A stretch of DNA of 64,000 nucleotides from an uncultured Clostridia bacterium (GCA_947625185.1 CANQNJ010000002.1:3267-67266), one strand, 5' to 3'. Numbered from the stretch's first letter, positions 3,143-23,325 are shown. Notes: generated by a model from the letters alone, not told the origin. A program made the numbers and translations.

Positions 3143-4285
3143 CTACCTCTCGCGCACAATATCCTTAACGTAATCCCAAAATGTTTTCGCCTCAACGTCG
3201 ACGTTTGCGACGAGATTTACTTGCTCTACTACGTTACCGTTTGTATCCGTCAATTGCGCCGTTCCGATAACTTCGCCCGCAACCACGGGCGCCTTGATCG
3301 TTTCGGGAAGATCGTAATTCACGCTGTAATCGACGTTGCCTTTTTTGCCAAATGCAGCAAGTTTGCCTTCGGGACGAACGTCAACGCTGTCGGCTTTGCC
3401 GCCCTGCACGGATACGCTTTGCATGCGGGTGTTTCCGTCAATATACACTTTGTTTTCGTAGTTGGCAAAAGCGTAATTGAACATATCGCTCACCTCTTTG
3501 AATCGGGTTTTGCTGTCCGACGCGCCTACCACTACCGCTATGACGCGGGTATCTCCGCGCTTGGCTGTTGCCGCAAGACAGTGCTGCGCTTCGCTGGTAT
3601 ATCCCGTTTTGCCGCCGTCGCAACCGTCATAAAAGCGGATAAGTTTGTTGGTATTCGTCATACCCGTCACGCGCCCAGACGGATGAACGAAATCTTCCAT
3701 CCATACGCGCGAACAAGTAAAGTAATGCGGATGCTTTATCAGTTCCGACAGCATTATGCCGACGTCTTTTGCGCAGGAATACTGACTGACTGCGGGCAAT
3801 CCCGTGCAATTTTCAAAGTGCGTCGCGACAAGCCCGAGTTGCTTTGCCTTGTCATTCATTTTCCCCACAAATGTTTCGACGCTGCCGCCGATATGTTCCG
3901 CAACGGCTACGCAACTGTCGTTAGCCGAACAAACGACGATGGATTTGATAAGATTATCCAACTTATAAGTAGCGTTAGCGTCCAAAAAGACTTGTGAACC
4001 GCCCATTGACGCGGCACGCTGACTTGCCACAACATTGTCATCGAGAGAGACTTTGCCTTCGTCTATCGCGTCGTAAACGCAAAGCAAAGTCATAATTTTC
4101 GTCATACTTGCAATGGGACGTTTTTCCGTGGAATTTTGCTCGAACAATACTTTGCCGTCCTCCGACATAAGCACCGCTTCTTTGGAGGATATGCCGAGAG
4201 CGACGGTATCCGCGCAAGCGGTAATCGGCACAATCGCCGCGACGATAAGCGCCATCGCAAACACAAATAAAAACAACTTTTTCAT
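3143..4285 (-). CDS. serine-type D-alanyl-D-alanine carboxypeptidase (S11, PBP5/DacB/DacF-like)
   Basis: Signal peptide plus the SMTK (SxxK), SAND (SxN) and KTGYT (KTG) motifs in the canonical order. GGAG RBS. Confidence 0.85.
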   Translation of the reverse strand: MKKLFLFVFAMALIVAAIVPITACADTVALGISSKEAVLMSEDGKVLFEQNSTEKRPIASMTKIMTLLCVYDAIDEGKVSLDDNVVASQRAASMGGSQVFLDANATYKLDNLIKSIVVCSANDSCVAVAEHIGGSVETFVGKMNDKAKQLGLVATHFENCTGLPAVSQYSCAKDVGIMLSELIKHPHYFTCSRVWMEDFVHPSGRVTGMTNTNKLIRFYDGCDGGKTGYTSEAQHCLAATAKRGDTRVIAVVVGASDSKTRFKEVSDMFNYAFANYENKVYIDGNTRMQSVSVQGGKADSVDVRPEGKLAAFGKKGNVDYSVNYDLPETIKAPVVAGEVIGTAQLTDTNGNVVEQVNLVANVDVEAKTFWDYVKDIVRER

Positions 4286-4914
4286 ACTTTGCTCCTATTG
4301 TTATTTGCCGTTAGTATCTGCAAAAGGCGCACGGATATACATCCGTACAAATGTAGCAATCGAATACCATTTATGCCGCCAATAAATTATAGAATGGCTG
4401 TCTGAGTAAACTTTTTATGCAAAAAGATCTCAAAAACTACCCGAAAAGCCCCGCTTTCACATCGTTTTATTATAAAAAATTCTTAGATAATCCACGGCTT
4501 GGCGATGATTGAGAAAAGCCTCGATGGCAAAACGCCTTCGGAGTAAAAACGAAATAAGCGACCGAAAATTTGCGAACCGATAGTCCAAAGGCGGTCAACC
4601 ATCTGCAAGGGACAAATAATATAGCGTGCACAAAACGGAATCGCAAGTATCACCTTGTACGCGTACCAAAATACCGAATGAAAGTATTTTATGACAAAAA
4701 TTTTGGCGCGGAGTGTATTTCGTACGATAGAAAAGAATACTCAAAGCAATCAAATTGTAAATAAACAATCAACAGAAAGAAGAACAAAGAGACAAATCAA
4801 ATGCGTATAGATGACTTGATTGCTTCGTTCGCGGTCAGCACCACGTAACGATCGCGTAATCGTCGGCTCGCCACAAACGCGGGTAAACACAGGGAACCAA
4901 TCGCCCCAAAAAAG

Positions 4915-4952
4915 GATATCCATCGGCAATACCGGTGGATATCTGTTGCAAA
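4915..4952 (-). terminator. rho-independent terminator after hup
   Basis: Hairpin GGATATCCAtcggcaataccgGTGGATATC (4923-4952), with a T-run on the minus strand (A-run 4917-4922). Confidence 0.6.
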
Positions 4953-4957
4953 GATTT

Positions 4958-5233
4958 TTATCCGTTGATCCTGTCTGCAAAACTTTGCGACGGTTTGAAT
5001 ACGATTGTCTTTTTGGCGGGAATAGTAATTTGCTTTTTTGTTTGAGGATTTATCCCCTTGCGCGCGGGACGCTTTTTGATACGAAACGTGCCGACGCCCG
5101 TCAGGCAAACTTCCTCTCCTTTCATAAGCTGTTCCTCTATGCTTTTCCAAAATGCATCGTAAAAACTCGTCGTTTTCTTAGATGTCTCGCCCGTCTTGTC
5201 CGTTACATATTCGATAAATTCGTTTTTCTTCAT
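4958..5233 (-). CDS. hup: HU family DNA-binding protein
   Basis: MKKNEFIEYVTDKTGETSKKTTSFYDAFWKSIEEQLMKGEEVCLTGVGTFRIKKRPARKGINPQTKKQITIPAKKTIVFKPSQ matches the HU/IHF fold signature. Start set at the internal ATG preceded by GGGAG. Confidence 0.9.
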   Translation of the reverse strand: MKKNEFIEYVTDKTGETSKKTTSFYDAFWKSIEEQLMKGEEVCLTGVGTFRIKKRPARKGINPQTKKQITIPAKKTIVFKPSQSFADRING

Positions 5234-5583
5234 ATTTGCTCCCTTTACCAATGCTTTTATGGAGATTTTCACCAATCGGGACAAAATTATACTCTATCAA
5301 TTCAATATACAGCTGTTTTTATTTAATTATGTCTGTAATAGTAGTATGTATTTCGGCAAAAACACAAATTCTCAAATAAAAAAAATAAAGTATATTGCTC
5401 AAAAAGGCGAGAAAAACTCCACCGTTTCCTACCCAAAAAAGCGAGTACGCCATACTTTTGCTTTCATTGATATTAACAGCATATTCTGAAAGGCAATTCT
5501 TTTTTGCCTCGAATTACAACGTACAATCCGTTTTCATAGCCGTACTTACCGCAGCCGCCGCAACTTGTAAATTTTACACTAAA

Positions 5584-5613
5584 TAAAAACGCTTCGACCA
5601 ATCAGTCGAAGCG
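5584..5613 (-). terminator. rho-independent terminator after deoB
   Basis: Hairpin CGCTTCGACcaatcaGTCGAAGCG with an A-run on plus, which is a T-run on minus. Confidence 0.6.
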
Positions 5614-5632
5614 CAATTAATTTTCAAAATTG

Positions 5633-6781
5633 TTATCTCGTTACTTTTTCCCAAACGGATTTCGGACCGCCGCCTATACCGAGTTGATCTTTTATTGTGT
5701 CGCAAATGACATCGAAACCTTTCATAGTACCGAGATTTGTCGGCACGACATCGCAGCCGTATATCAACAGCGGCGTGTATTCGCGCGTATGATCCGTGTG
5801 CGCCTTGTGTGTGGGGTCGCAGCCGTGATCGCCCGTTATATACAGCACGTCGTCGTGATGCATAATCTTGATAAGCTCGGCAACCTTGCCGTCAATCTCC
5901 TCCAACGCCTCGGCATATCCAAACACGTCGCGTCTGTGACCGTATTTCATATCCGTATCCACAAGATTGACAAACACCAATCCGTCGAAACGTTCTTTTG
6001 CGATCTCTATCGTTTTGTTAAGTCCGTCCAGATTGCTGAGAGTGTGTATGCTGCGCGTAATGCCCTGTCCGTTGAATATATACTCAATCTTGCCCACCGC
6101 TACGCTTTGCATACCTGCGTCCTTTACAAAGTCCAACAGCGTCTTGGACGGAGGACTGATAGAGAAGTCCTTTCTGTCCGAAGTACGCGTATACGGATAT
6201 TCTCCCGTAAAGGGACGTGCGATTACTCTGCCGACGGCATATTTGCCCGTGCAAAGTTTACGTGCCTTTTCGCACATATCATACAGCTCTGCAACAGAAT
6301 ATTTATCTGTATGAACAGCTATCTGCAAGACGCTGTCTGCGGACGTATACACAATGGGATACCCCGTCTTAATGTGTTCCTCGCCGAAATCCTTGATAAC
6401 TTCTGTGCCGCTGTACGGTTTGTTGCAAAGTACCTTCGTGCCCAATTCTTTTTCCAACCTGGCGATGAAGCTCTGCGGAAAACCGTTGGGAAACGTCGGC
6501 ATCGGTTCGTTGGTAATGACTCCCGCCATTTCCCAATGACCGACCGTCGTGTCCTTGCCCTTGCTCAGCTCTTCCAAGCGTCCGTATGCGCCGATAGGCA
6601 TTCTATCGTCGTTGTAAGTTCCGTCTATGTTATACAACCCCATATCGGATAACACGGGCAACTGCAAGTCGTAAGCCGCGCGGATGTTTTTCAGCGTATT
6701 TGCGCCAAAGTCGTTAAACAATTTACAATCTGGCATAGCCCCTATCCCGAAACCATCGATAACCAGAATAAATGCTCTCAT
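5633..6781 (-). CDS. deoB: phosphopentomutase
   Basis: 382 aa. MRAFILVIDGFGIGAMPD...HWEM...GDHGCDPT match the metal-binding motifs of phosphopentomutase. Confidence 0.9.
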   Translation of the reverse strand: MRAFILVIDGFGIGAMPDCKLFNDFGANTLKNIRAAYDLQLPVLSDMGLYNIDGTYNDDRMPIGAYGRLEELSKGKDTTVGHWEMAGVITNEPMPTFPNGFPQSFIARLEKELGTKVLCNKPYSGTEVIKDFGEEHIKTGYPIVYTSADSVLQIAVHTDKYSVAELYDMCEKARKLCTGKYAVGRVIARPFTGEYPYTRTSDRKDFSISPPSKTLLDFVKDAGMQSVAVGKIEYIFNGQGITRSIHTLSNLDGLNKTIEIAKERFDGLVFVNLVDTDMKYGHRRDVFGYAEALEEIDGKVAELIKIMHHDDVLYITGDHGCDPTHKAHTDHTREYTPLLIYGCDVVPTNLGTMKGFDVICDTIKDQLGIGGGPKSVWEKVTR

Positions 6782-8439: not shown

Positions 8440-11091
8440 TTACCACTCTAACGTCATTCCGACGATAACGAAATTATTTCCCTTCGCACCGTTCTTTTCA
8501 AACTTCAGCGTGTTCGACGCTTCGGTCAAATCCAACGTGACGTCTATGGCACTCGTAAGTTTTCCGTCCCAAGTCTTATCGCCTTTTTCCTCGCTATACT
8601 CTTTGCCGTTTACCGAAAATTGAACCATCGTCGCATCGGAATAAGGAATGATCTTAAAAGAGATTTTCTTTATCTGATGCACGGTAGTAAAGTCAATGGA
8701 GCCGGGGCTGGAGGCCTTACCGGGGTAGAAGCCAATACCTTTACCGTCACGCACGGTCTTTCCGTTCGTTGCAAGCATTGTAAGAATTTCCGTTTGATCG
8801 GGAGTCCAAACGTTAATGTGAGATGAAACCATATCGGTTTTGGGAAGGGAAACGGTATAGTAGGTATTACTGCAAACTGTGTCTGCTGTTAATCCATCTG
8901 CCCAATCATAAGTAATCGAGCTTGTTCCCGTTGCTTCCGTTTCCAAAGTCATGCCGACGATAACGAAATTATTTCCCTTCGTACCGTTCTTTTCAAACTT
9001 CAACGTGTTCGACGCTTCGGTCAAATCCAACGTGACGTCTATGGCACTCGTAAGTTTTCCGTCCCAAGTCTTATCGCCTTTTTCCTCGCTATACTCTTTG
9101 CCGTTTACCGAAAATTGAACCATCGTCGCATCGGAATAAGGAATGATCTTAAAAGAGATTTTCTTTATCTGATGCACGGTAGTAAAGTCAATGGAGCCGG
9201 GGCTGGAGGCCTTACCGGGGTAGAAGCCAATACCTTTACCGTCACGCACGGTCTTTCCGTTCGTTGCAAGCATTGTAAGAATTTCCGTTTGATCGGGAGT
9301 CCAAACGTTAATGTGAGATGAAACCATATCGGTTTTGGGAAGGGAAACGGTATAGTAGGTATTGCTGCAAACTGTGTCTGCCGTTAATCCATCCGTCCAA
9401 TCATAAACCGCTTTAATCGCCTTTTGTTCTTCCGTGAGAGTAAGCGTAATCTCGTTGGATGTAACGTCACCGCACTTTACGGATATTTTCACTTCGCCTG
9501 CCGAAATGGTTTTAACGGTAGCTTTGACCGTATCGCCAGATACTGTTGCCTTTGTTTCATCCGAGCTTATCCACTCAGCATTTTCAAAAACAGCACTTGC
9601 GGGAGTTATGCTCTTAACGGTTATCTCAACGGAATAAGGAAGGATGACCTCTGTTTTCTCTGCCTCAATTTCTATTGCTTGGAGAGCGGGGAATGTGCAG
9701 GATAAAATGACATTTTCAACCGCACCCTTGTCATTGCTGTAAATATCGTCCTCTTTGGTGAAATTGATGTGGAAAAGTACGGTACAGCCATCCAGCGCAC
9801 CATCGCCATTTTTTACATTAAATTTCCCAAATGCACTCGTGGAAAAGTCACAAGTCAATTTTTTGCTCTTGTCTGTATTAGAAACGGTAAACGCATAACG
9901 TGCATTTGCAAGCGTTGATCCTGCGTCTACCACGCCGCGCACATAGTAAAGCACTCCGCTATCATCGGCAATAAGATTTCCTTTTTCATCCAATTTGGTG
10001 ATAGCTTCATCCACGGTGAGCGGATCTTCTTCCGTCGTTCCGTGGGTGCTTCCCTCAACATTTATCGTCACGGATGCAGACTTTGTAGTCCCGGCGGCGG
10101 TAGCTGTAATTATCGTGCTACCACTCTTGCCCGTGAGTCGAATCGTACACGTCGGGCCAAAATCCTGCACGGTAGCGACAGATGTATCGGAGCTGTTCCA
10201 ATCTACATCTTGTGAAGCCTTATCGGGAGAAATGGTTGCTTTTATGCCCATGGTATTGTTTTCGATGGGCAATAAGTTCAATTCCTGTGGCGTATTCAAC
10301 GTGATGGATTCAACATCTGCAAAAGAAATTTGAACGTCCACAATGCTCGGGGTAAACTTTGCTCCCGTGGGGCTTGCACTTGCGGGAAGATACGAGCATT
10401 GATATTTGCTATAATACAATTCGATGAAGCCCTTGATAATAATGGTTGCACCGTCAAGCGCACCGTCTTTTTCAGCGGGTTTATCCGTAACGGAACTATC
10501 TATCTTCGCTTGGCAAGTGACGACCTTCTCGCCCGTTCCAAGCGTAAACTTCCATTCATGATATTGTGTGTCTATTGTAGAACCTGCGTTTACAACACCT
10601 TGAATGTAGTAGCCGTCTTTATTGGTGGGATTTACAACTTTCCCGTTGCCCGCCTCGTCCATCAAAGCGATTGCCTCTTCGGGAGTGAGGGGGTTATCTT
10701 GCGTTTTACCTTTGTCTACCGTTTGGTGTCCCGGGCACTTGCTTGCGCACACAGGATCTGTGCAGGTCGCGTCGGTGCATTTTCCGCAAGTAGGACATTT
10801 ATGTCCGCAAACATGCGGTGTGGGCTCGGGTGTGAGTTGGGGGATTTCCACCGGTTTGGAAATTTCGTTTTTGCCGTCTTTGTCCGAGAACAGCTTGCCG
10901 CAAACATCGCATTTCCAATATGCTTCGTAGCCTGCCTCTTGCAATGTGGCATCCTTTTGGGCTACTGCCGTGAGCGTGTGACCGTTCTTTTCACATTCGT
11001 CCTGCGGTTGGCACGCCGCAATGACGGATACAAACGTGAACAACATTGCCACAACAAGCAACAACGCCATCAATTTTTTTGTTTTTGTCAT
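8440..11091 (-). CDS. large surface lipoprotein with Cys-rich N-terminal region, two Big_2-like Ig domains and two copies of a 155-aa C-terminal domain
   Basis: Start set at ATG 11091 (AAGGAGAAAAAAAAC-ATG). Signal peptide MTKTKKLMALLLVVAMLFTFVSVIAAC with a lipobox Cys. Segments such as ISPDKASQDVDWNSSDTSVATV and ENAEWISSDETKATVSG resemble Big_2. Confidence 0.8.
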   Translation of the reverse strand: MTKTKKLMALLLVVAMLFTFVSVIAACQPQDECEKNGHTLTAVAQKDATLQEAGYEAYWKCDVCGKLFSDKDGKNEISKPVEIPQLTPEPTPHVCGHKCPTCGKCTDATCTDPVCASKCPGHQTVDKGKTQDNPLTPEEAIALMDEAGNGKVVNPTNKDGYYIQGVVNAGSTIDTQYHEWKFTLGTGEKVVTCQAKIDSSVTDKPAEKDGALDGATIIIKGFIELYYSKYQCSYLPASASPTGAKFTPSIVDVQISFADVESITLNTPQELNLLPIENNTMGIKATISPDKASQDVDWNSSDTSVATVQDFGPTCTIRLTGKSGSTIITATAAGTTKSASVTINVEGSTHGTTEEDPLTVDEAITKLDEKGNLIADDSGVLYYVRGVVDAGSTLANARYAFTVSNTDKSKKLTCDFSTSAFGKFNVKNGDGALDGCTVLFHINFTKEDDIYSNDKGAVENVILSCTFPALQAIEIEAEKTEVILPYSVEITVKSITPASAVFENAEWISSDETKATVSGDTVKATVKTISAGEVKISVKCGDVTSNEITLTLTEEQKAIKAVYDWTDGLTADTVCSNTYYTVSLPKTDMVSSHINVWTPDQTEILTMLATNGKTVRDGKGIGFYPGKASSPGSIDFTTVHQIKKISFKIIPYSDATMVQFSVNGKEYSEEKGDKTWDGKLTSAIDVTLDLTEASNTLKFEKNGTKGNNFVIVGMTLETEATGTSSITYDWADGLTADTVCSNTYYTVSLPKTDMVSSHINVWTPDQTEILTMLATNGKTVRDGKGIGFYPGKASSPGSIDFTTVHQIKKISFKIIPYSDATMVQFSVNGKEYSEEKGDKTWDGKLTSAIDVTLDLTEASNTLKFEKNGAKGNNFVIVGMTLEW
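8446..9405. repeat. tandem duplication: two near-identical 465-bp units (8446-8910 and 8941-9405, period 495 bp) inside the lipoprotein gene
   Basis: The antisense shadow ORFs 8620..8826 and 9115..9321 are identical. The protein copies differ at only 2 residues (A/T twice), plus a few synonymous changes. Confidence 0.9.
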
Positions 11092-11290
11092 GTTTTTTTT
11101 CTCCTTATAAATATTTAGAGCAAAATTATACCGATTGCCCCGCTCGGTTTTGTGCTGTTGAGCCTCGTCATGAGAGGAGTGTTCGGCACGGCAAAACTTG
11201 TTTGCCGTACCAAACCGAAGTAATTTGTTCGCCGTCACATAGTTTGAAGAGTATTTGCGCGCAATAAGATGAACAATCTGCAATGGATTT

Positions 11291-11319
11291 TGTTCATCTA
11301 ATAGTATATTAGGTGTACA
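11291..11319. repeat. inverted repeat, left arm (IR-L) of the putative invertible segment
   Basis: tgttCATCTAATAGTATATTAGGtgtaca. Its reverse complement matches 11440-11468, with a 19-bp perfect core and 26 of 29 positions overall. Confidence 0.8.
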
Positions 11320-11398
11320 AAATGAGCGGAGAAAGGTGTAAAATATAATTGTTTTGACAAATTTCGATAGGTAAAATAAAAAAATTTGGGTTTTGGTA

Positions 11399-11427
11399 TT
11401 TACATTTGGGCGGTCAAAGTGTATAAT
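11399..11427 (+). promoter_or_regulatory. sigma-A type promoter TTTACA-17-TATAAT inside the IR-flanked segment
   Basis: TTTACA (11399-11404), a 17-nt spacer, then TATAAT (11422-11427), read on the plus strand. Confidence 0.5.
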
Positions 11428-11439
11428 TAGTATGTAATT

Positions 11440-11468
11440 TGTTCGCCTAATATACTATTAGATGTACA
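11440..11468. repeat. inverted repeat, right arm (IR-R)
   Basis: tgttcgCCTAATATACTATTAGATGtaca, the reverse complement of IR-L. Confidence 0.8.
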
Positions 11469-11504
11469 TTTTTGACGGAGCTGTTCGACAGGTTTCGTCT
11501 TTTT

Positions 11505-12410
11505 TTATGCAAACATTTTGCCGAGTTTGTTCATCATTTGCACCTTGTATTCCAACATACTGTGAGCGTACCGTTTGAGCGTTACAGTCGGGTTTGAGTG
11601 ACCGAGCAGTTCCGCAAGTGTTTTGACGTCCATTCCGCATTCCAGAGCGCGGGTGGCAAAGGTGTGTCGCAGGGAGTGAAAGCCTTTATGCGGAATTTTG
11701 AGTTTGTTCAATATAAGGCTGAAACTCTCTTGGTAAGATCGCATTGATACAGGGCGTCCGTTACCTTCTATTACATATTTTGTCGTGCGCGCCTTGTACA
11801 GTTCCTTGAACAAAGGCAGTAACTGTTTTGGGAACGGAATGGCGCGCAGAGAGTTTGCCGTTTTGGGCGCGTCCTCCATTCGCTCACCGTTGAGATAGTA
11901 ACAGGTCTTTTCCACCGTGAGCGTGCAAGCGTCCATATTCACGTTGTTCCACTCCAAGGCGAGCAATTCGCCCAGCCGTAAGCCCGTGTACAGGCAGATT
12001 ATTATGCCGTAGAACTTCAACTTTTTACCGCTTTTTATATGCGCCTCTATTTGCTTTTGCTCCAATACGGAAAAACAATCTACCTTTTTCTCCGCCGATC
12101 TTGGGCGACAAATTTTGTTCGCCTCGTATGTGGCAACGTGACCTAATATGTGCGCCGTTTTAAGTGAGTTTTGCAACACGGAGATAGTTACGTTTACCGT
12201 GCTTGCGGATAACGGTTTGCCTATGCTTGGTGCGAGCAGGTCGGTTACAAATTGCTGTAACACGGATAATGTTAATTCGGACAATTCGTATTCGCCCAAA
12301 CGCGGTATAATGCGCGCTACCGCTTGCGTGTAGGTGTTGCAAGTACGCGCCTTGCATGATGTTTTTACATAGTTGTTCAGCCAGATTTCCAGCCATTGAT
12401 GGTACTTCAT
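11505..12410 (-). CDS. tyrosine site-specific recombinase (phage integrase family)
   Basis: 301 aa. YTGLRLGELLALEWNNV (catalytic Arg box) and HSLRHTFATRALECGMDVKTLAELLGHSNPTVTLKRYAHS (H-x-x-R ... H ... Y). AAAGGAG RBS. Confidence 0.85.
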   Translation of the reverse strand: MKYHQWLEIWLNNYVKTSCKARTCNTYTQAVARIIPRLGEYELSELTLSVLQQFVTDLLAPSIGKPLSASTVNVTISVLQNSLKTAHILGHVATYEANKICRPRSAEKKVDCFSVLEQKQIEAHIKSGKKLKFYGIIICLYTGLRLGELLALEWNNVNMDACTLTVEKTCYYLNGERMEDAPKTANSLRAIPFPKQLLPLFKELYKARTTKYVIEGNGRPVSMRSYQESFSLILNKLKIPHKGFHSLRHTFATRALECGMDVKTLAELLGHSNPTVTLKRYAHSMLEYKVQMMNKLGKMFA

Positions 12411-12969: not shown

Positions 12970-14109
12970 TTATTTTTTCGTATCTAATATTTTTTGTACG
13001 CGCGTTTGAACGAATGCCTCGATGATTTTCAAACGGTAGACAGGTAAATTATACTTAGGATGCTTCTCAAACTTGAAGTTAATCAGTTTGCGCAGCTGCT
13101 CCCTTTGCCTATCCGATAAAAATTCGTTGACCAATGCATCATAAGATACACCTTCAAAAGCCGGCGTGCGAGTCTGCGCGTACTTGTCTATTTCCAGCAA
13201 ATCCTCTTCCATCGCATAGTTGAACAACGACAAGCCGTTATCAAATATCGGAGCCAATTCTATCGGCTTATTTGTTGCGTTATCGACTAACAAGCCGAAA
13301 TTTCCGAAATGCCTATCGGTATTGCAAATAAGAGCGTCAAAAATCATCATATCGGCGAAGCTATCGTAAAAACTTTCGCCAAGAGATTTCAAATACTCCA
13401 CCGTTTTCGTCAATGTGCAATTCGGTAAAAATCTGTGGATCGGAACATACGATGTGTTTATGTCCGTAAATAACTCGCAAGTAGAACATAGTTGTCTTTT
13501 CCATTTGGACAGACCGTATGCGACGTGCTTGATCCCCATTCTTTCGGCAATTTGCGCGGCGTAAAATTCGGAATATGGTTCGTTGCCTGCATTAGCAGCG
13601 CCCGATGTTCCACCCTTGTAAAGATAAATTTTTTTGTTTAGCCTGCGCCAGCATTTTCTCAGCGTGCCGTTCGTGGTATATTCCGGCGATGAAGTAAAAC
13701 CCTTGCGAGTATTGCTGCCATAGCCTGTATATGCTATCAACGCCAGCGTGCGAGCAAAACTGTTTTCGTAAAGGTTGTAGTCCGCAAATTTGCCTGCGAA
13801 CCCCTCCTCGACAATCCAATAGCTGTCGTTAAGAGAAAGCCCTTTACTCAATCTTATAATTCCAAGCGTATCGTTCGCGGAAAGTCCACTCTTCGAGAGA
13901 ATCTGATCGACGAACTCTCTGTTTTTTGGTATTACACGCGAGGACAACCATTTTGCAAGGCCATCGGGGGTGGGCGTTAACCCAATCGGCAACAAATGTT
14001 TCAACTCATCGTTTATCCAGTCAATATTGTAAACAATCTCCCCCAAACTTGTTCTGTCCATATAGAACCTTAATAGATTGTTATCATATTGTTTGAGTTC
14101 AAAAACCAT
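12970..14109 (-). CDS. HipA C-terminal domain kinase-like protein (orphan; no adjacent HTH partner)
   Basis: 379 aa. ICNTDRHFGNFGLLVDN matches the HipA-type catalytic D-x-H-x-x-N loop. AAGGAGG RBS. Confidence 0.6.
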   Translation of the reverse strand: MVFELKQYDNNLLRFYMDRTSLGEIVYNIDWINDELKHLLPIGLTPTPDGLAKWLSSRVIPKNREFVDQILSKSGLSANDTLGIIRLSKGLSLNDSYWIVEEGFAGKFADYNLYENSFARTLALIAYTGYGSNTRKGFTSSPEYTTNGTLRKCWRRLNKKIYLYKGGTSGAANAGNEPYSEFYAAQIAERMGIKHVAYGLSKWKRQLCSTCELFTDINTSYVPIHRFLPNCTLTKTVEYLKSLGESFYDSFADMMIFDALICNTDRHFGNFGLLVDNATNKPIELAPIFDNGLSLFNYAMEEDLLEIDKYAQTRTPAFEGVSYDALVNEFLSDRQREQLRKLINFKFEKHPKYNLPVYRLKIIEAFVQTRVQKILDTKK

Positions 14110-14144
14110 TGAATGCCTCCTTGTTAAAATGGAACCTTGTAGTA

Positions 14145-14173
14145 ATTATAGCATGTATAGCAGAAAATTTCAA
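14145..14173 (-). promoter_or_regulatory. candidate promoter TTGAAA-17-TGcTATAAT for the orphan hipA-like gene
   Basis: The reverse complement reads TTGAAAttttctgctatacatgcTATAAT. Confidence 0.4.
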
Positions 14174-14265
14174 CTGCTCATAAGATTAATTTGATCCGTC
14201 GTCTGTTTGGCGTTTCTAATACGCAATTCTTGGAAAAATAATTTGAATTTTGTGTTGTAAACTAA

Positions 14266-14295
14266 GGAAAAAGTGCCTATACGAAATAGACACTT
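14266..14295 (-). terminator. terminator closing the four-gene ATPase/RloB/KAP operon
   Basis: On the minus strand: AAGTGTCTATttcgtATAGGCACTT followed by TTTTT. Confidence 0.5.
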
Positions 14296-14344
14296 AATAC
14301 TCTGATAAGAACGATAAAATTTAACTTCAGCTTTTTTATATTTT

Positions 14345-17017
14345 CTAACTCACAAGCTTTTTAACATAGCTCTTAAACATACTTTTCCGCCGAGAATTCT
14401 CTTTCCACAAAAGATTATATATATGCATTTTAATTTCGTAATCAGTCAATAATTCATCAAATTGACCATTACACAAATACCTTTGTATGCTATTACTATC
14501 TTCCAATGAATCAATACGTTCGATTTTAAGAATATAATTTTTCCTTTGCTCCATATCTTTACATTGTTCCATAAATGCTTTTAGTAATTCAATGCGCTGC
14601 CCCCAAGTATTGTAAATAAGTAATTGCTGCAGGGACAAACGTTCGAACTTTCGAGCAATGTACACCGCCTCTAAAAACTGCTGACAATTTGACATATAGT
14701 CAAACATTTGGTCTACGGTAACATAAACTAATATATATTCATCAATATCTATCGTTGGATCAAACGAAAATTTATTTTCATATAATGTGCGTCCAACAAT
14801 ATACTGCCAATATTGGTGCCTATTGCGTAATTCAATCGTTATTTGGGGCGGCATGGCTCCACAATAATCGTTATCTATGATAAGATCAATTAATTTATTG
14901 CTCCCAATATTTAATTGGTCTAATAAAGCGATAAACTTCTTAATATATTGGAGACAAGCAGTTCTATCAGTTGTATTTGCAATTTTTTTAATTATCTTTT
15001 CCTCGATCAAAGTAGGCATATCTGATGTAATATCCGCAAATTGAATGAGTTCATCAAATGAAGTAAATTGACAAGTATCTTCATATGATTGTGCAATTTC
15101 TTCCTTTTGAGCCGATTTTAATACATGGTAATCGACTTTTTTAAACGGAATTTTCTTAAACAGCTCTTTCGTATTTTGAGAAGTGTTTTCAAACAAAAAT
15201 TTTGCCAACAAATATGCATCTGTTGCACTTCGGATCAAAAACTGAAAAATTTCACCTGCTTGTGATGGGCTCTGAATCAATCGTGTTATTAAACCGAGAT
15301 CCAGGCAATCCTCTAACGTTATTATTCTTGCTTCCTCTTCAGTTAATATAGCATACTGCGCATCATACAAGAATTTATAAGCCCGTCTTATTTCAATCGA
15401 TTGTTGAATTAGACCAATTCTATATTTAGTAAACAATGATTTGTGTCGACTGAACAACTCATTCATCATTTTACTGTCAAATATACTTACATCATATATA
15501 CGCGTTTCAAAATTATTTAACGTGATGCAATATTGGAGAAAAGTACTATAATATTTCTGTTCATAAAGACTATTGAGTATATTATCATTTATGTTTAAAT
15601 ACCTTTCATAACCTTTTAGGCATTCGCAATACTCCTTACTGATCGGCTCGTCAAGAGAATTTAGATAATTTTCTATTTCCTCATAAATTTCACTTCGGTT
15701 TTTTGATATAAACTTGAAAATTGTATCGTCAACAATTTTATTCAAGGACATCAAAGAAAGTACACCTCGCAACATTTCATCGGTCGGGGCCACAACGGCC
15801 GTATGACGTTTAATCATATCGACTAATTTAACTTTTTGCATCTCAGTCAACTCGGTTTTTGCCTTGTCAGCCAAAGCAACCAACAAAGAATTTGTACATT
15901 TACTTGGCTCAAGCAAATCAAATATTATATTCACATCACTTAAAGCTAATACTTCTTCGCTACTAAGGCAAGGAACGTTGCTATATATAAACATATTCTT
16001 AAACAACAGAATATCATTGCCAAATTTTTGTGTCAATTCAAACCGACATTGAGTGAAATATTCATTAAAATTTGTGGTCTTTTTATACAACTCCTCGGAA
16101 TATTTTTTTAGTAGGTCACACTTACTTGAAAATGCGTAGCTGTAAACTCTAAGTAATGTTTCAACAACGCTTTCGGTATTTTCTTTACTCCAAGGATAAT
16201 TAACAACCATCGTATTAATTATTTGATCGGGATATTTTCTATAACAATATTCTAAAAGGCGTTCATCTTGTAAAATTACAACAGGAAAAGTCTTTTTAAG
16301 TTGCATTAGCTGGTTCATGCAGGCATCGGCAACTTTACATTCACCATCTTCAGAGAAAGACTGCTCTATAATGTTAATAAATTCATTTTCTTCACAACTA
16401 TTTCCAAGCAATAATACATCTTCTAATTTTCGCTCGCCTACATTCTTGATGTAACTACCATTCGGATAACTGAAAAAATACTGTTTGAAATTATCGTCTA
16501 TTATTCTATCGATAATCATACCACTGATTTCTTGCACAAAATCATCCGCTAATTCGAATTCACCAGTGAATACTTCTTTAATGTACTTAACAAGTTTTCC
16601 TATCTTTTCTTCACGTCCGGACGTAGATTCAATTCTCAACAAATTGCCATTATCTACTATTTGCTCAAACTTCTTATCATTATTTACGAGCTTGTAATAA
16701 TTTTGTTTATACTCGCTTTTAAGATATGCAACAGCACAGCATGTTATCATACTGGGGTTTCCCTGCTGATTTTTATACTGTCTTGAACAAATGGTCTTAT
16801 ATAAAACGATAGCATCATTGAGACGATGTTTTAAATCACGAATTGTCAACTTACGACCTTGAATAAGATATGAAAATTGTCCATATATAGAATCAGGTAT
16901 GTTTTTATCTTGTTCGCCTACGGTAAACATTTTTCGTATCTCTTGCTCTTTCTCTTTGAGCAATTCTTGGAGTATTTTTGAAAAATCATCAATATGCACT
17001 GCTTTTAAGTCAAGCAT
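14345..17017 (-). CDS. 890-aa predicted all-helical protein; an in-frame continuation of the upstream KAP NTPase ORF
   Basis: Long AT-rich ORF with no motif I recognise and no RBS. It is in the same frame as 17072..18013 (both start coordinates are 1 mod 3), separated only by a TAA plus 18 sense codons. Confidence 0.6.
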   Translation of the reverse strand: MLDLKAVHIDDFSKILQELLKEKEQEIRKMFTVGEQDKNIPDSIYGQFSYLIQGRKLTIRDLKHRLNDAIVLYKTICSRQYKNQQGNPSMITCCAVAYLKSEYKQNYYKLVNNDKKFEQIVDNGNLLRIESTSGREEKIGKLVKYIKEVFTGEFELADDFVQEISGMIIDRIIDDNFKQYFFSYPNGSYIKNVGERKLEDVLLLGNSCEENEFINIIEQSFSEDGECKVADACMNQLMQLKKTFPVVILQDERLLEYCYRKYPDQIINTMVVNYPWSKENTESVVETLLRVYSYAFSSKCDLLKKYSEELYKKTTNFNEYFTQCRFELTQKFGNDILLFKNMFIYSNVPCLSSEEVLALSDVNIIFDLLEPSKCTNSLLVALADKAKTELTEMQKVKLVDMIKRHTAVVAPTDEMLRGVLSLMSLNKIVDDTIFKFISKNRSEIYEEIENYLNSLDEPISKEYCECLKGYERYLNINDNILNSLYEQKYYSTFLQYCITLNNFETRIYDVSIFDSKMMNELFSRHKSLFTKYRIGLIQQSIEIRRAYKFLYDAQYAILTEEEARIITLEDCLDLGLITRLIQSPSQAGEIFQFLIRSATDAYLLAKFLFENTSQNTKELFKKIPFKKVDYHVLKSAQKEEIAQSYEDTCQFTSFDELIQFADITSDMPTLIEEKIIKKIANTTDRTACLQYIKKFIALLDQLNIGSNKLIDLIIDNDYCGAMPPQITIELRNRHQYWQYIVGRTLYENKFSFDPTIDIDEYILVYVTVDQMFDYMSNCQQFLEAVYIARKFERLSLQQLLIYNTWGQRIELLKAFMEQCKDMEQRKNYILKIERIDSLEDSNSIQRYLCNGQFDELLTDYEIKMHIYNLLWKENSRRKSMFKSYVKKLVS

Positions 17018-17071
17018 ATAATCAAAAAATTTGCTGTAATTTTCGCTTTTACCTGCATTGTCACCATTAGT

Positions 17072-17965
17072 TTAAGCAGTATTACTGCGTTTATCAATGT
17101 CAGGTCTAATTGCTACGATAAAGTGGATTTTTTTATTATCACATGCATTGGAAAGTCTATAAAGTACTTTTATAAAATTATCTATAAGATTCTCCTTCTC
17201 GGCTTTGTCCATTTCTATTCTATCTAAGTCTTCAATCAAAATTATTCTATTTTTACTTTTATTTTTGCAAATTGTATCCACTATTTCTTGATAAATCGAA
17301 AATATATCGCTACTATCTAGTTTTCTATGTCCCTCACTTTTCCATGTGGAAAATGCAACGTTATATTTTTTTAGACCGATAACCAAAAATATAATTGACA
17401 TAGCATAAAATAACGGATATATATCTATCTTTAATAAAAATTGCCATCCATTCCAAATAGTTTCTAAATACGGGATATCCACTGTTGTCATATGGAAAAT
17501 CAATCCAATGACAAAAGATAACAAGGCTAACGATAAAAGCCCCCAGATCTTTTTAGAACTAAAAGTTATGGATAGCAAGCCACTATTACCGCTAAGTCTT
17601 TTATTTACGTATTTTACTAAGTCTCTGTCTTCACTGTTTTTCGCAAGTTGAAATAAAAACGACTTTTCTAACCGTAATTCTTGAGATTCTACATCCTCAT
17701 TGTCTTGTTGTTGCAACCCATCCCACATATTAATTTTAATGGTTTTACCGTACTTATCAGTGTTGGCGGTCAACATACCTACCATGCTTGATTTTCCATA
17801 GCCATAATCGCCAATTAACCCAATCATTTTTGCGCCCGAGTCTATAGCATCGTCCAACGCATCCCTTTGAGCCTGAAAACCAATGTGATCTTGATTTTCT
17901 TCATTGATCTCATGATTAACATACGAATAGCTACTCTTCTGACCATTCTTTTGTTTTTTTACCAT
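17072..17965 (-). CDS. KAP-family P-loop NTPase, N-terminal module with TM helices inserted in the NTPase domain
   Basis: Walker A GDYGYGKSS, then two hydrophobic helices (IWGLLSLALLSFVIGLIF and IYPLFYAMSIIFLVIGL), then Walker B RIILIEDLDR. This matches the KAP architecture. Start moved to ATG 17965, 5 nt after GGAGG. Confidence 0.7.
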   Translation of the reverse strand: MVKKQKNGQKSSYSYVNHEINEENQDHIGFQAQRDALDDAIDSGAKMIGLIGDYGYGKSSMVGMLTANTDKYGKTIKINMWDGLQQQDNEDVESQELRLEKSFLFQLAKNSEDRDLVKYVNKRLSGNSGLLSITFSSKKIWGLLSLALLSFVIGLIFHMTTVDIPYLETIWNGWQFLLKIDIYPLFYAMSIIFLVIGLKKYNVAFSTWKSEGHRKLDSSDIFSIYQEIVDTICKNKSKNRIILIEDLDRIEMDKAEKENLIDNFIKVLYRLSNACDNKKIHFIVAIRPDIDKRSNTA

Positions 17966-18009
17966 TCTATCCTCCGTACAATAATTGTTGAAACTGTTTT
18001 TTTTAGAAT

Positions 18010-18639
18010 TCACCTCTCAATTATTTTATTGATATTGCAAATCCACTTAGAATTGCCAGACTCCAACGCATTGAATAATTGCAAAACGTTGCTACTTGGC
18101 ACAAAGGTGTATGTATCTTTCAACCGCACCAAACGTCGTTTCATTTCCGCGTAATTTTGCGATGTAATTTTATTTACGATTGCCTTGCGTTGCTGTTCAG
18201 TTGCGTTATAATCTTTCACGCCCGTCAATCGCTCCACCGTTGCAGCGTTATCAGTTTTGCTATTGGAGATCAATTTGACCGCATCGAAATGCAGCAACAC
18301 CACTTGCAACGTACAAGGATTGACGAAGAATACAACTTGATCCGCTACACCTTTATCGTGAAATTTATCTATCTTTTGTTTCATTGCAACAAACTGGTTA
18401 TACGGATACTTTTCGGTATCGCAAAAAATCACAATCAACTTGTAGTTGTTTGTTTTATAGTAATATGAGTACATCGCAGAGATATTGCTTATAGATTTGG
18501 CATCTTTTGTATGAACCGAAAAATTTTTGCTCCACACACCGCAAGCTTTCAATCGATTGATATAGTCGCATTCCTCTGCACCCTCACATACGATAAGAAC
18601 ATTATTCTCATTGCTCGCGTTAGGTAATTTGTTCGCCAT
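18010..18639 (-). CDS. RloB-like / TOPRIM-like protein (AbiLii-like)
   Basis: N-terminal NVLIVCEGAEECDYINRL resembles the RloB signature (hhhhCEGxxxExxY), and VIFCDTEKY is a later acidic patch. Start at ATG 18639, 1 nt after the stop of the ATPase gene. The stop overlaps the long-ORF GTG of the next gene. Confidence 0.6.
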   Translation of the reverse strand: MANKLPNASNENNVLIVCEGAEECDYINRLKACGVWSKNFSVHTKDAKSISNISAMYSYYYKTNNYKLIVIFCDTEKYPYNQFVAMKQKIDKFHDKGVADQVVFFVNPCTLQVVLLHFDAVKLISNSKTDNAATVERLTGVKDYNATEQQRKAIVNKITSQNYAEMKRRLVRLKDTYTFVPSSNVLQLFNALESGNSKWICNINKIIER

Positions 18640-18640
18640 T

Positions 18641-19936
18641 TCAATTACCCCCGTTACTTCTTGTGTCACTCAAAAGTATGGATATCATATCGGGTTCCGG
18701 TAGCGCCCCCAACACCCCCGAATTATATCTATCAAACACATCTGTTTCCGAACGAATTTTATCTTCTTTTGCAGTAAACTCCGCTAATGAATATAGGTAT
18801 TCATTTTCGCTATCTTTGGATGCAAACCAAATTTGATCTTTACGGAATAATTTTTTACAATCTAACAATGTCGCATCGTGCGCTGTAAATATCAACTGCG
18901 CTTTTACATTCAATTCATTGTTAAACAATGCAACAATAGCTCGTGTAAGTCTGAAATGCAAACTGCTGTCCAATGCATCTACTACAAGAGTTTTTCCTTC
19001 ATCTAATGCTTCTACAATATAACTCGCAATTGACACAATCTTTTTCGTCCCGGTTGAATCAAAAGAAAAACTTTGCACCGATTTACCCTTATGAACAGAT
19101 GTCAACCGCAACATATCTCCAATAGCTACTTTTAATTTGAGAACCTCCTCTCTTGGATTGGGGGCTTCTTCCTCATTGGTAATACCTATTGCTCCGGACT
19201 TTGAACTATCTGCATAATATAGAAAATCATCTATATCCAAATCTGCAAGACGAATAAGCTCCACGGTTTTTTCTTTAATTTTTTCATTATTCTTCAAAAC
19301 ATCAATTGTTCTGTTGATTGGTATATTATTCATATCAAGTACCGTGATACTATCTGCGAATTTACGCAAAATATCTTTATATTCGCCTATCTTAGAAAGA
19401 ATAGAAGTATTTACTGTATATATTAGAATATTATCATTTGACACAAGACTTAAAATTTTGCTTAATTCATCATCCTCATGAAAACGATAAATACCATTTA
19501 TAACATCTCGTATAAACAATTCTTTAATTGAAATGTTCTTATGAGATTCAAACGTCAGCTCTTTTAAGCACTCATATACAAAGCCTCTTTTATAACCGTT
19601 CAAAAGCGTAGAATCATATTTAAAATCATATTCAAATACTCTATCGCATTCCATGAATGTTACGCCAAATGAGCATACTTTGTCATTTCTGAATATATTT
19701 GACGGCACCTCGGCAACTAAACCAAGTAACACATTCTTTATGGAGTTAATTGCACGAACAAGGCAAGTCTTGCCGGAATTGTTTGCACCGTAAACACAAA
19801 GGGATTTCAACACGTTAAAACCCATATTTTCATACACGTTATCTGCAAATCTCTTTATCCGCATATCTGCAATCAAAGATAATTCCACATCATTAGAGTA
19901 AACCAAAAAATTGTCAACACGGACTTTTATTAGCAT
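18641..19936 (-). CDS. AAA_15/AAA_21-type (ABC-like) ATPase (AbiLi/RloA-like)
   Basis: Walker A GANNSGKT, signature-like FDSTGTKKIVSIASYI, Walker B TLVVDALDSSLH and H-loop FTAHD. Confidence 0.8.
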   Translation of the reverse strand: MLIKVRVDNFLVYSNDVELSLIADMRIKRFADNVYENMGFNVLKSLCVYGANNSGKTCLVRAINSIKNVLLGLVAEVPSNIFRNDKVCSFGVTFMECDRVFEYDFKYDSTLLNGYKRGFVYECLKELTFESHKNISIKELFIRDVINGIYRFHEDDELSKILSLVSNDNILIYTVNTSILSKIGEYKDILRKFADSITVLDMNNIPINRTIDVLKNNEKIKEKTVELIRLADLDIDDFLYYADSSKSGAIGITNEEEAPNPREEVLKLKVAIGDMLRLTSVHKGKSVQSFSFDSTGTKKIVSIASYIVEALDEGKTLVVDALDSSLHFRLTRAIVALFNNELNVKAQLIFTAHDATLLDCKKLFRKDQIWFASKDSENEYLYSLAEFTAKEDKIRSETDVFDRYNSGVLGALPEPDMISILLSDTRSNGGN

Positions 19937-19990
19937 ATCTTTACTTGCTCCTTTTTATTTTCAATATATAGTATAGCATAGCAATATTTT

Positions 19991-20011
19991 TTGTGCAAGT
20001 TTTTTGCACAA
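19991..20011. promoter_or_regulatory. perfect 8-bp-arm palindrome TTGTGCAA-n5-TTGCACAA in the divergent promoter region
   Basis: Seen between the ATPase operon start (19936) and the SpeE-like gene start (20174). Possibly an operator. Confidence 0.3.
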
Positions 20012-20173
20012 TTTCCACAAACAAATTATGCCAACTTTATCATCAAATAAAACCACTATTCTAAAATTAACTTTATAATTTTTTTACGATACATAAACCA
20101 ATTTGTGTAGCGTCAGTATACCTACAATAACTCTTTATTATTTTATGCAAATGATACGAGAGGAGAATGTGTT

Positions 20174-21022
20174 TTGTTTTACTATGAAAAAGAACCTATA
20201 AGCATTTATTTGCAAAATTTGGAAAAACTTGCGACAATAAATTCTTCCAAACAAACCATTGAACTGTTTAACCATATTTACCTAGGTAAAGTGTTAATAA
20301 TCAACGGTGAGATACAACACATTGAAAAGTACCAATCCCTATATCATGAAATGCTTGTTCATTTGCCAATAGCTTTTATCCCAAATGTTAAAAATGTCCT
20401 TATAATAGGGGGAGGGTCGTTGTTTGCCGCCTTTGAAGCATTAAAATACTCTTCTGTTGAAAGTGTTACTTTGTGCGACCATGATCATTATGTTTTAGAT
20501 TTAATGGCAAAGTATTATTCACACGCGAAGTATGTTCTTCAGTCCCCAAAGTTTATGTTAATAGAAAAAGATGCTCATGATTTTTTGATTGAAGATTTCG
20601 GTACATATGATTTAATAATTAATGACTGCTTTAATTTAGCGATGGAGGGCAAGAGAAAAAAAATTTCATATTATAATATTTTATCTTCGCATCTAACTCC
20701 GACAGGAGCATGTTCCGATATTACATATAGGCATATTTTCGATGAAGCGACTATGCAACTTACATTGGAGCAGGTGTCTCGCGAATCGTATAGGGCTTAT
20801 TCATTGGTGACTGTACCAGAATATCCCGGAATTTTACATCTCCAAGTAATATGGGGGAAGTCTGATAAAATTCGCTCAGACATTTCCATACCTGTAAACG
20901 ATATACAGCGAGATGGTATTATGAAGAAAAAGCCTTTTAATACAGAGTTCTATATGCCCTCATGCTTGCCTTACTATTTACATATTCCAAACTATGTAAA
21001 AAAACTATTTAATAAAATTTGA
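20174..21022 (+). CDS. spermidine synthase-like (SpeE-fold) protein, divergent
   Basis: YHEMLVHLPIAFIPNVKNVLIIGGGSLFAAFEALKY...VTLCDHD...YDLIINDCFN parallels SpeE, but GGGDGG is replaced by GGGSLF and DSTDP by NDCFN. TTG start 7 nt after GAGAGGAGAA. Confidence 0.6.
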   Translation: MFYYEKEPISIYLQNLEKLATINSSKQTIELFNHIYLGKVLIINGEIQHIEKYQSLYHEMLVHLPIAFIPNVKNVLIIGGGSLFAAFEALKYSSVESVTLCDHDHYVLDLMAKYYSHAKYVLQSPKFMLIEKDAHDFLIEDFGTYDLIINDCFNLAMEGKRKKISYYNILSSHLTPTGACSDITYRHIFDEATMQLTLEQVSRESYRAYSLVTVPEYPGILHLQVIWGKSDKIRSDISIPVNDIQRDGIMKKKPFNTEFYMPSCLPYYLHIPNYVKKLFNKI

Positions 21023-21862
21023 GGTAAAACTTAGTTCTTCTGAGGGACACTTGATTGCATCATAGAATACCTCAACATTCTTCCAAAGTGGAGACCTTAA
21101 AATTTTGTCGTTACATCTTGTCAGCTCCTCTTTATTGTTAATATATCCATATTGAACAATAAATGGTTCTTTCGGGTGGTTTGTTGCTGCCCAAGGAGAA
21201 CCCAGAAGCGAACAATTTGACCGATCATTATTTCTATAGAGCTGAATTTTATTGATTTTTATATAAGGAATACTTTTATAATTATCTGTCTCTAAATTGA
21301 TGCCTGCCGCAAGAAACATACTTCGAGCAATATGGCTATGCTGCGTGGGACAATAAGACAACGTACCCTTTAACCTTACTGGACATCCAAAAAAATCCTC
21401 ATTAAAGAAATGTGGGATTTCCTTTAAAAGATATTGGGTGGGAATTACTCCTAAAATCCCTTCTCCGATATATCCATATCGAGCATAAATTCCTACTAAG
21501 GTTTCTCCATTAAGTGACCCTGTGCGGATTGTGTCATCGGACCCAGCATAGAATTCCAATTTACTATATTGCTGTGAAGTGATCTTCCCTTCAAAGTCAT
21601 AAAGTGTATTCCACCTTTTTCCGTTTTCAAACGGATTGCGGGGAAACAACTGTATATACGGCGACAGAAGACCATCTAATGCCAATGAAGCGCCTTCACC
21701 GATCATTTTTTGATCTATTCCCCTAAACCAAAGATCCATAGGACCCTCGTAAGTGTTTTCCTTAAAGTATTTTTCATATATTTTTTTCCCAAAATATGAT
21801 CCCAAGGCTCCCACAAAAGTTTGGCCGGCGGCTATGAGCAAAGAAAGAATATTTGAATCCAT
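21005..21862 (-). CDS. hypothetical protein with an N-terminal TM helix
   Basis: 285 aa counted from ATG 21862 (GGAGA RBS). No recognisable motif. Its 3' end overlaps the 3' end of the convergent SpeE-like gene by 18 bp. Confidence 0.5.
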   Translation of the reverse strand: MDSNILSLLIAAGQTFVGALGSYFGKKIYEKYFKENTYEGPMDLWFRGIDQKMIGEGASLALDGLLSPYIQLFPRNPFENGKRWNTLYDFEGKITSQQYSKLEFYAGSDDTIRTGSLNGETLVGIYARYGYIGEGILGVIPTQYLLKEIPHFFNEDFFGCPVRLKGTLSYCPTQHSHIARSMFLAAGINLETDNYKSIPYIKINKIQLYRNNDRSNCSLLGSPWAATNHPKEPFIVQYGYINNKEELTRCNDKILRSPLWKNVEVFYDAIKCPSEELSFTSNFIK

Positions 21863-21953
21863 ATCATCTCCCAATAATAATAAAGAGTTATTGTAATTAT
21901 TTTACCATATTTTTCCGTGCTTTTCAACCTAATATGACAAAAAATTACATCCC

Positions 21954-23042: not shown

Positions 23043-23325
23043 TTTTGTAATCCTTGACGCTGGTAATAATCTCGTGTTTGAAAAGTTCTTCAAAATCCGC
23101 AAGACAACCAATGGCATTTGCAAGCTTGACAAGCGAATGTAACGAAATCTCCCCCGTCTGTTCAAACCTGCGAATTGAAGAATAAGTAACCCCCGAACAT
23201 TTCGCAAGCTTTACCTGAGAAAGTTTCATCTCCTTTCGTCTCATTCTGAACCGTGCCGCCAAATTGTCTAACGTTGTTTTTTCTGTCAGCGTGGGGATAA
23301 ATTCCCCTATATCAAATTTGTTCAT
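23032..23325 (-). CDS. hipB: XRE/HipB-type HTH antitoxin
   Basis: 97 aa. LSQVKLAKCSGVTYSSIRRFEQTGEISLHSLVKLANAIG is an HTH_3 motif. It lies immediately upstream of hipA and overlaps it. Confidence 0.8.
   Translation of the reverse strand: MNKFDIGEFIPTLTEKTTLDNLAARFRMRRKEMKLSQVKLAKCSGVTYSSIRRFEQTGEISLHSLVKLANAIGCLADFEELFKHEIITSVKDYKNGR

Follow-up and report, generated by a model that had tools for sequence, protein, structure and literature searches.

The sequence described here is a 64-kilobase (kb) window of DNA from the genome of an uncultured gut Clostridia bacterium (GCA_947625185.1, CANQNJ010000002.1:3267-67266), and all coordinates are given in window numbering. In this window, a short promoter cassette flanked by inverted repeats (IR) is located between a gene encoding a tyrosine recombinase and a gene encoding a large surface lipoprotein. 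Judged by homology and architecture, this locus is very likely a functional inverton, that is a promoter inversion switch, captured in the OFF orientation. An initial annotation of the same DNA had proposed such a switch, and the proposal is supported in that all of the structural elements are present, relatives of the recombinase invert equivalent cassettes, and the placement of a repeat pair just past the recombinase stop codon is enriched in the recombinase family. Inversion of a promoter by a tyrosine recombinase is in itself a textbook device, of which this locus would be a new example. The features of the locus, with lengths in nucleotides (nt), base pairs (bp) or amino acids (aa), are as follows.

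8440-11091, minus strand: cargo lipoprotein gene, 883 aa, with signal peptide and lipobox, a Big_2 match (2.5e-11) and a duplicated C-terminal domain
11092-11290, minus strand: leader, with half-site-like repeats at 11264-11276 and 11220-11233, a 15-bp hairpin at 11181-11215 and a lone TATAAT at 11125-11130
11291-11321, no strand: IR-L, the lipoprotein-proximal site, core 11295-11313
11314-11445, no strand: predicted invertible segment of 132 bp, lying between the perfect cores
11399-11427, plus strand: promoter TTTACA-17-TATAAT, matching the consensus at 11 of 12 positions, with a predicted start at about 11434, facing the 3' end of the recombinase gene
11438-11468, no strand: IR-R, the recombinase-proximal site, core 11446-11464, an imperfect dyad of TTTGTTCGCCTAA / TATACTA / TTAGATGTACA
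11474-11506, plus strand: intrinsic terminator facing the cassette, a 9-bp stem (11474-11499) followed by T7, found on the plus strand only
11505-12410, minus strand: tyrosine recombinase gene, presumed invertase, 301 aa, with Pfam matches to Phage_integrase (4.7e-25) and Phage_int_SAM_3 (5.9e-10)

Recombination sites and recombinase

The two arms were delimited by a repeat finder as 31-nt inverted repeats that are complementary at 28 of 31 positions (90%) and lie 116 nt apart. They contain the 29-nt arms (26 of 29) of the initial annotation, and the 19-bp core, CATCTAATAGTATATTAGG, is perfect in both as had been claimed, on the plus strand in the lipoprotein-proximal arm and on the minus strand in the other. 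When this core was searched for with up to 3 mismatches, exactly two copies were found in the window, on opposite strands, with an expectation of 0.00 from 100 dinucleotide shuffles, none of which contained two copies. As read from the sequence, each arm is an imperfect dyad in which two half-sites of about 12 nt, TTTGT(A/T)C(A/G)(T/C)CTAA, surround an asymmetric centre, TAGTATA, as is usual for the core sites of tyrosine recombinases. The asymmetric centre sets the orientation of each site, and since the two sites are inverted with respect to one another, inversion of the intervening segment is the predicted outcome, which would create the minus-strand ON junctions TGTACATCTAATAGTATATTAGGTGTACAAAATGAGCGG and GTATGTAATTTGTTCGCCTAATATACTATTAGATGAACAAAATCC. 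The 116 nt between the arms have a guanine-plus-cytosine (G+C) content of 28%, as opposed to 45% window-wide, and the sequences flanking the cassette, GGATTT and TTTTTG, show no duplication; the cassette itself occurs once in the window.

The recombinase retains a complete set of catalytic residues (R145, K183, H245, R248, H271 and Y281), and none of these varies among the 20 family members, at 56-91% identity, of alignment A1. A distance of 36 nt separates its stop codon from the repeat arm, so that the earlier description of a 301-aa tyrosine recombinase ending 37 bp from IR-R was essentially right, and its gene lies upstream of, and co-oriented with, the lipoprotein gene, both being on the minus strand, an arrangement on which that description was silent. 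The protein has thousands of database relatives; a protein look-up returned no record of the exact sequence, and a literature search found no paper describing this recombinase family.

Promoter, terminator and proposed mechanism

In a promoter scan, TTTACA-17-TATAAT stood alone as a strong sigma-70-type match in the interval between the flanking genes. No comparable site was found on the other strand of the cassette or in the leader, and the minus strand of the leader yielded nothing promoter-like that passed the scan. The position of the promoter and its direction, on the plus strand and away from the lipoprotein ATG at 11091, had been given in the initial annotation and are borne out, and the designation of this orientation as OFF is right on sequence grounds: with the sole strong promoter facing away, the lipoprotein gene would be left without one and would be OFF or low. 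Inversion of the segment in silico gives a leader of 234 nt, where about 230 nt had been estimated.

The intrinsic terminator is located between the recombinase stop codon and IR-R, antisense to the recombinase gene, and the OFF-oriented promoter is predicted to produce a transcript of about 70 nt that ends there. Terminators in the equivalent place and on the equivalent strand are also present in three divergent loci (L006, L026 and L113; L-numbers denote loci of relatives that were fetched with their flanks). Conservation of a cassette-facing terminator in four divergent loci, the window included, implies that the promoter must spend time facing the recombinase gene.

In the mechanism that we propose, the adjacent recombinase would bind the two inverted 31-nt core sites, each through its two imperfect half-sites, and strand exchange within the identical 19-bp core would flip the 132-bp segment with its sigma-A-type promoter. 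In the OFF orientation, the promoter would fire toward the recombinase gene and its short transcript would be stopped at the terminator, with no antisense transcription into the recombinase gene. In the ON orientation, the promoter would lie at 11360-11332 on the minus strand, with a start at about 11325, and would transcribe the leader and the 883-aa Big_2 surface lipoprotein gene. That the adjacent recombinase carries out the inversion, and that lipoprotein expression follows the orientation of the cassette, are presumed from this arrangement.

Inversion in the wider recombinase family

The clearest example of inversion in this family is that of the relative P0077, a recombinase to which the window's protein is 55% identical over its full length (E = 2e-126). 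In the P0077 loci, the repeat, CCGAATATGCCATTC / GAATGGCATATTCGG, begins 2 nt past the stop codon, and the 133-bp interior of the cassette in L022 is the exact reverse complement (133 of 133) of that in L020, L021, L023, L024 and L025, which come from different samples and share 2.2 kb of identical downstream sequence with it. The promoter in this cassette, TTGACT-17-TATAAT, faces the recombinase gene in five places, and in L022 it faces the downstream N6_N4 methyltransferase and helicase genes. This orientation count covers the six displayed places, similar undisplayed places having been merged by their neighbouring proteins without regard to orientation. The P0077 switch (L020-L025) lies between a large-terminase-like gene and genes for an N6_N4 methyltransferase and a ResIII helicase (locus positions 880-2283 and 3650-5915), and is a candidate phase-variable restriction/defence system or prophage-borne methylation system of human-gut bacteria, including some from Hadza samples.

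A second example is closer to the window, in a subfamily that shares the core TATTAGCATAATAG and whose recombinases are 72-77% identical to that of the window. The cassette of L026 (recombinase 72% identical) aligns to those of L028 and L006 solely as the reverse complement, with a score of 44.5 as compared with 7.2 +/- 5.2 for shuffles. In L026, TTTACA-17-TATAAT faces the cargo operon, and in L006-L010, L028, L032 and the window it faces back. The window's own cassette aligns best to L028 and L006 in the direct orientation, weakly and within the range of shuffles, and to L026 only as the reverse complement, again weakly.

Across the family, the 80 best loci, out of roughly 580 hits in GTDB, were surveyed with one genome taken per species, and 67 of these were assessable in that they had enough sequence downstream. 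The repeats sought were inverted repeats of at least 14 nt, starting no more than 80 nt from the recombinase stop codon, with a spacing/span of 80-190 nt; a qualifying pair was present in 36 of the 67 loci, as opposed to 2 of 113 control regions taken from the same loci. The best promoter of the survey cassettes faces the recombinase gene in 25, the downstream gene in 8 and is tied in 3 (17 versus 6 for matches of at least 10 of 12). All of the 80 loci are from gut metagenome-assembled genomes (MAGs), at 48-57% identity, and most carry Clostridia, Eubacteriales or Christensenellaceae labels, with a few others. Of 78 contigs, 11 end no more than 250 nt from the recombinase stop codon. In L049, L052, L065, L066, L094 and L075, which represent several species, the contig ends exactly at the recombinase-adjacent repeat, at its inner or outer edge, and in L027, L029 and L030 it ends about 100 nt past the stop codon, within the cassette. 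Contig ends at the repeats fit branching of the assembly graph caused by mixed orientations.

The cargo of the family falls into two groups, one of lipoproteins, including BspA-type leucine-rich repeat (LRR), collagen-like and Big_2 proteins, and one of restriction/defence-type proteins, including type III methyltransferases, ResIII/SNF2 helicases, an HD phosphohydrolase and an Hsp70-like ATPase. Surface lipoproteins and restriction/defence genes are the classes on which phase variation typically acts.

The same locus in relatives and alternative explanations

The same locus type is represented by the window, L001-L004 and L032, which are six assemblies compared as consensus sequence. In L001-L004 (recombinase 90-91% identical), the repeats, cassette and orientation are the same as in the window and the start of a homologous lipoprotein gene is found downstream. 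The same repeats, cassette and orientation are seen in L032 (82%), where the contig ends within the leader. Alignment of these relatives shows conservation at the repeats, at both promoter hexamers (in L001, L002 and L032) and at the outer flank of the distal site, and drift in the central part of the cassette. The centre of the site is TAGTTTA in both sites of L032 and TAGTATA in both sites of the window, and such a concerted change fits the need for identical crossover regions. A separate feature of two relatives is an insertion of about 290 bp that contains G+C-rich palindromic stretches and separates the recombinase stop codon from what is left of the terminator hairpin, its 3' part (L001:1025-1320 and L031:1095-1242).

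Several observations weigh against a functional switch at this locus. The ON orientation was seen in none of the six assemblies, all of which are OFF-like. A search of the Joint Genome Institute (JGI) metagenome collection with the 19-bp core gave nine single matches, all unrelated by flank comparison and BLAST, and the core was not found in a viral-contig collection. P0077, for which inversion is proven, is a relative of only 55% identity with other repeat sequences, and the promoter is known as a consensus match only. In addition, no terminator follows the recombinase gene in the direction of its transcription, and a TATAAT without a -35 hexamer stands alone in the leader (11125-11130, minus strand); for these two reasons OFF may mean low and not zero. 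As the ON orientation is missing from all six assemblies, it is from homology that we infer that the locus inverts.

The likeliest rival, which we nevertheless consider unlikely, is a fixed arrangement, either a decayed switch or one that has never inverted, with the repeats as operator-like protein-binding sites or as relics. The RNA of about 70 nt would then be a constitutive product of the promoter, and the lipoprotein would be expressed by read-through from the recombinase gene or from weak signals in the leader. This rival accounts for the single orientation of the six assemblies and draws on the missing recombinase terminator, and the promoter-to-terminator unit does fold as two predicted hairpins (z = -2.1). 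However, the short RNA has no family match in Rfam, where the leader and cassette gave one sub-threshold chance match, and neither the perfect 19-bp cores with their co-varying centre in L032 nor the complete catalytic residues, the conserved insulating terminator and the flipped homologous cassettes would be expected of a fixed arrangement. If the switch were also OFF-dominant like cwpV of Clostridioides difficile, which is ON at about 5-14% and OFF at about 85-95% (PMC5903667), then, by this analogy only, a few consensus assemblies that are all OFF are what would be expected.

A second rival, that the cassette is a miniature inverted-repeat transposable element (MITE) or insertion-sequence remnant, or that the recombinase serves as integrase for the adjacent defence island with the repeats as attachment sites, is in our view highly improbable. 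The recombinase does belong to the Phage_integrase superfamily, a defence island with AbiL and HipA-like kinases is directly upstream, the cassette is AT-rich, and the closest solved structures are those of Tn1549/Tn916-type integrases (PDB 6en0/6emz; E = 2e-14, residues 131-289). Yet the match to these covers the catalytic domain only, and the window's recombinase, unlike Tn1549/Tn916, has no arm-binding domain or transposon context. An island is bounded by attachment sites in direct repeat, whereas the sites in the window are inverted and 116 nt apart, which points to inversion and not to integration or excision, and there is no direct-repeat partner. Dozens of species in which the neighbours differ keep the repeat pair next to the recombinase stop codon, and only 1 of the 80 best relatives in viral contigs belongs to the recombinase family. 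The MITE had been raised as an alternative in the initial annotation, and it is disfavoured by the presence of a single cassette and core copy in the 64-kb window and by the lack of a target-site duplication. As for a chance inverted repeat with a fortuitous promoter match, short AT-rich repeats and TATAAT-like hexamers are frequent in AT-rich intergenic DNA, and a promoter scan over the 1.9-kb region gives about as many sites as shuffles do, but this explanation is effectively refuted by the shuffles of the core, by the conservation of repeats, promoter hexamers and terminator in relatives around a drifting cassette middle, and by the enrichment across the family.

Comparison with known switches

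In the fim switch of Escherichia coli, the promoter is within a short invertible element, fimS, between inverted repeats, and in the OFF orientation it points back at the recombinase gene. The FimB and FimE recombinases have about 200 aa and no domain other than the catalytic one; fimS measures 314 bp, its repeats are 9 bp long, and it depends on IHF and Lrp. Of the systems compared, fimB/fimE-fimS-fimA has the closest layout to the promoter inversion switch proposed here, as the recombinase gene is directly upstream of, and co-oriented with, the gene for the surface structure (NC_000913 annotation). The window element differs from fimS in having 132 bp between perfect 19-bp cores (31-nt arms) and a dedicated terminator that insulates the recombinase gene. 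Membership of the FimB/FimE subfamily is ruled out, as FimE is a 198-aa protein without the N-terminal SAM-like domain and shares 22% identity with the window's recombinase over 153 residues of the catalytic domain; the window's switch would work like fim while lying outside that subfamily.

In Bacteroides fragilis, local tyrosine invertases reportedly control outer-surface proteins. This resembles the window in that the host is a gut commensal, the tyrosine recombinase is encoded locally, the promoter is invertible and the cargo is a large surface protein, and differs from it in phylum (Bacteroidota as opposed to uncultured Clostridia), promoter type and repeats. Invertons are common in gut Bacteroidota, and a widespread occurrence in human-gut Firmicutes is also reported (PhaseFinder and DeepInverton surveys, PMC11602134).

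The initial annotation had likened the locus to cwpV/RecV. The C. difficile Cdi switches (cwpV, flgB and others) are indeed similar in that they are found in a Firmicute and consist of a short invertible segment, acted upon by a tyrosine recombinase, before a surface-protein gene. The cwpV promoter is said to be fixed outside the switch, with orientation deciding whether a terminator forms. In the window, as opposed to cwpV/RecV, the promoter is within the switch and the recombinase is its own, encoded adjacently, RecV being a single remote master recombinase that acts on several sites in C. difficile (PMC5903667). The analogy holds for the outcome, in that a surface protein of a Firmicute is OFF most of the time, and fails for the mechanism and genetics. 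An orientation-dependent terminator of the cwpV kind was considered and set aside, none having been recognised in minus-strand folds of the leader in either orientation; the terminator scan covered the OFF orientation only.

Leader and a putative third site

The half-site-like repeats of the leader, TTGTTCATCT and GGCGAACAAATTAC, have a spacing of about 33 nt instead of 13, and this pair looks like a degenerate third recombination site. The second of them is also one copy of a 14-nt perfect direct repeat, in which leader positions 11220-11233 equal 11434-11447, at the predicted transcription start. In a fold of the ON leader, the first 14 nt of the mRNA, which derive from the flipped segment, pair perfectly with 11233-11220 to form a 14-bp helix, so that, according to this model, inversion may add a second layer of control through a 5' helix present only in the ON orientation. 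A selected RNA helix was nevertheless rejected as the origin of the repeat: the leader copy decays without compensation in relatives, with 13 of 14 positions pairing in L002 and 12 of 14 in L001 and L032 (counted by hand), and the complement of the L026 transcript start is absent, by eye, from the leader of L026. The decay suggests that the leader copy may be a fossil, and we take it to be part of the putative degenerate third site.

A related site was encountered elsewhere, in L079, from a MAG labelled Ruminococcus sp. whose recombinase is only 50% identical. About 165 nt past the stop codon, this locus contains a 26-nt site, ACATCTAATAGTATATTAGGTGTACA, that corresponds to the window core plus one flank of each arm, and the contig stops directly after it. 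We have no explanation for an identical site in the face of this recombinase divergence.

Cargo exchange and significance

The lipoprotein gene starts at an ATG on the minus strand preceded by an AGGAG ribosome-binding site, and the protein has an N-terminus, MTKTKKLMALLLVVAMLFTFVSVIAAC, with a lipobox, and Big_2 Ig-like domains. Its C-terminal domain is duplicated in tandem (8447-8746 and 8942-9241, 98% identical, with a 495-bp period). A homologue in L113 (83% identical) has a single copy of this domain, which indicates that domain copy number differs between strains.

A comparison of three loci gives hints of independent exchange of the recombinase-inverton unit and its cargo. In L113 (1-2699), the body of the lipoprotein gene is 96% identical in nucleotide sequence and lies behind a different recombinase of the family with unrelated repeats, TACATAGATTACGCTA. 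In L001 (1721-4420), a 91% identical recombinase and the same cassette precede a lipoprotein that is 42% identical, with 86-96% DNA identity at the gene start and 3' flank. In L114 (2461-5115), a lipoprotein homologue (49% identical) has no recombinase or module, and a divergent HTH_3 gene is found instead. On this basis we tentatively raise, as a possibility that we hold to be the less probable one, that the recombinase, the cassette-facing terminator and the inverton form a self-contained, portable module whose cargo, surface lipoproteins or anti-phage/restriction genes, is interchangeable by recombination, possibly with an RNA layer specific to the ON orientation. A module family of this kind, undescribed as such, may occur widely in uncultured gut Clostridia, in MAGs with labels such as Christensenellaceae and Borkfalkiaceae.

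If the switch functions as proposed, an uncultured lineage of gut Clostridia would gain ON/OFF control of a large, fast-evolving surface lipoprotein, and surface switches matter for immune evasion, masking of phage receptors and colonisation. The wider family result, which suggests dozens of switches in gut Clostridia MAGs, is perhaps more useful than the single locus. The signature of the family, a repeat pair that starts no further than about 80 nt from the recombinase stop codon and a promoter cassette of 100-170 nt, often with a cassette-facing terminator, could guide the annotation of phase-variable genes where a genome comes without read-level evidence.

Genomic neighbourhood

Directly upstream of the recombinase gene is a defence-type island (12970-23207), which includes the following.

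12970-14109: HipA-like kinase, matching PADLOC PDC-M03A
14345-17017: 890-aa protein with no family match
17072-18013: YobI-like ATPase
18010-19936: AbiLii and AbiLi
21954-23207: full HipA

The rest of the window resembles the core chromosome of a spore-former, with SpoIVB, ScpA, Dxs and an ATPase of the SMC_N/RecF/RecN type.

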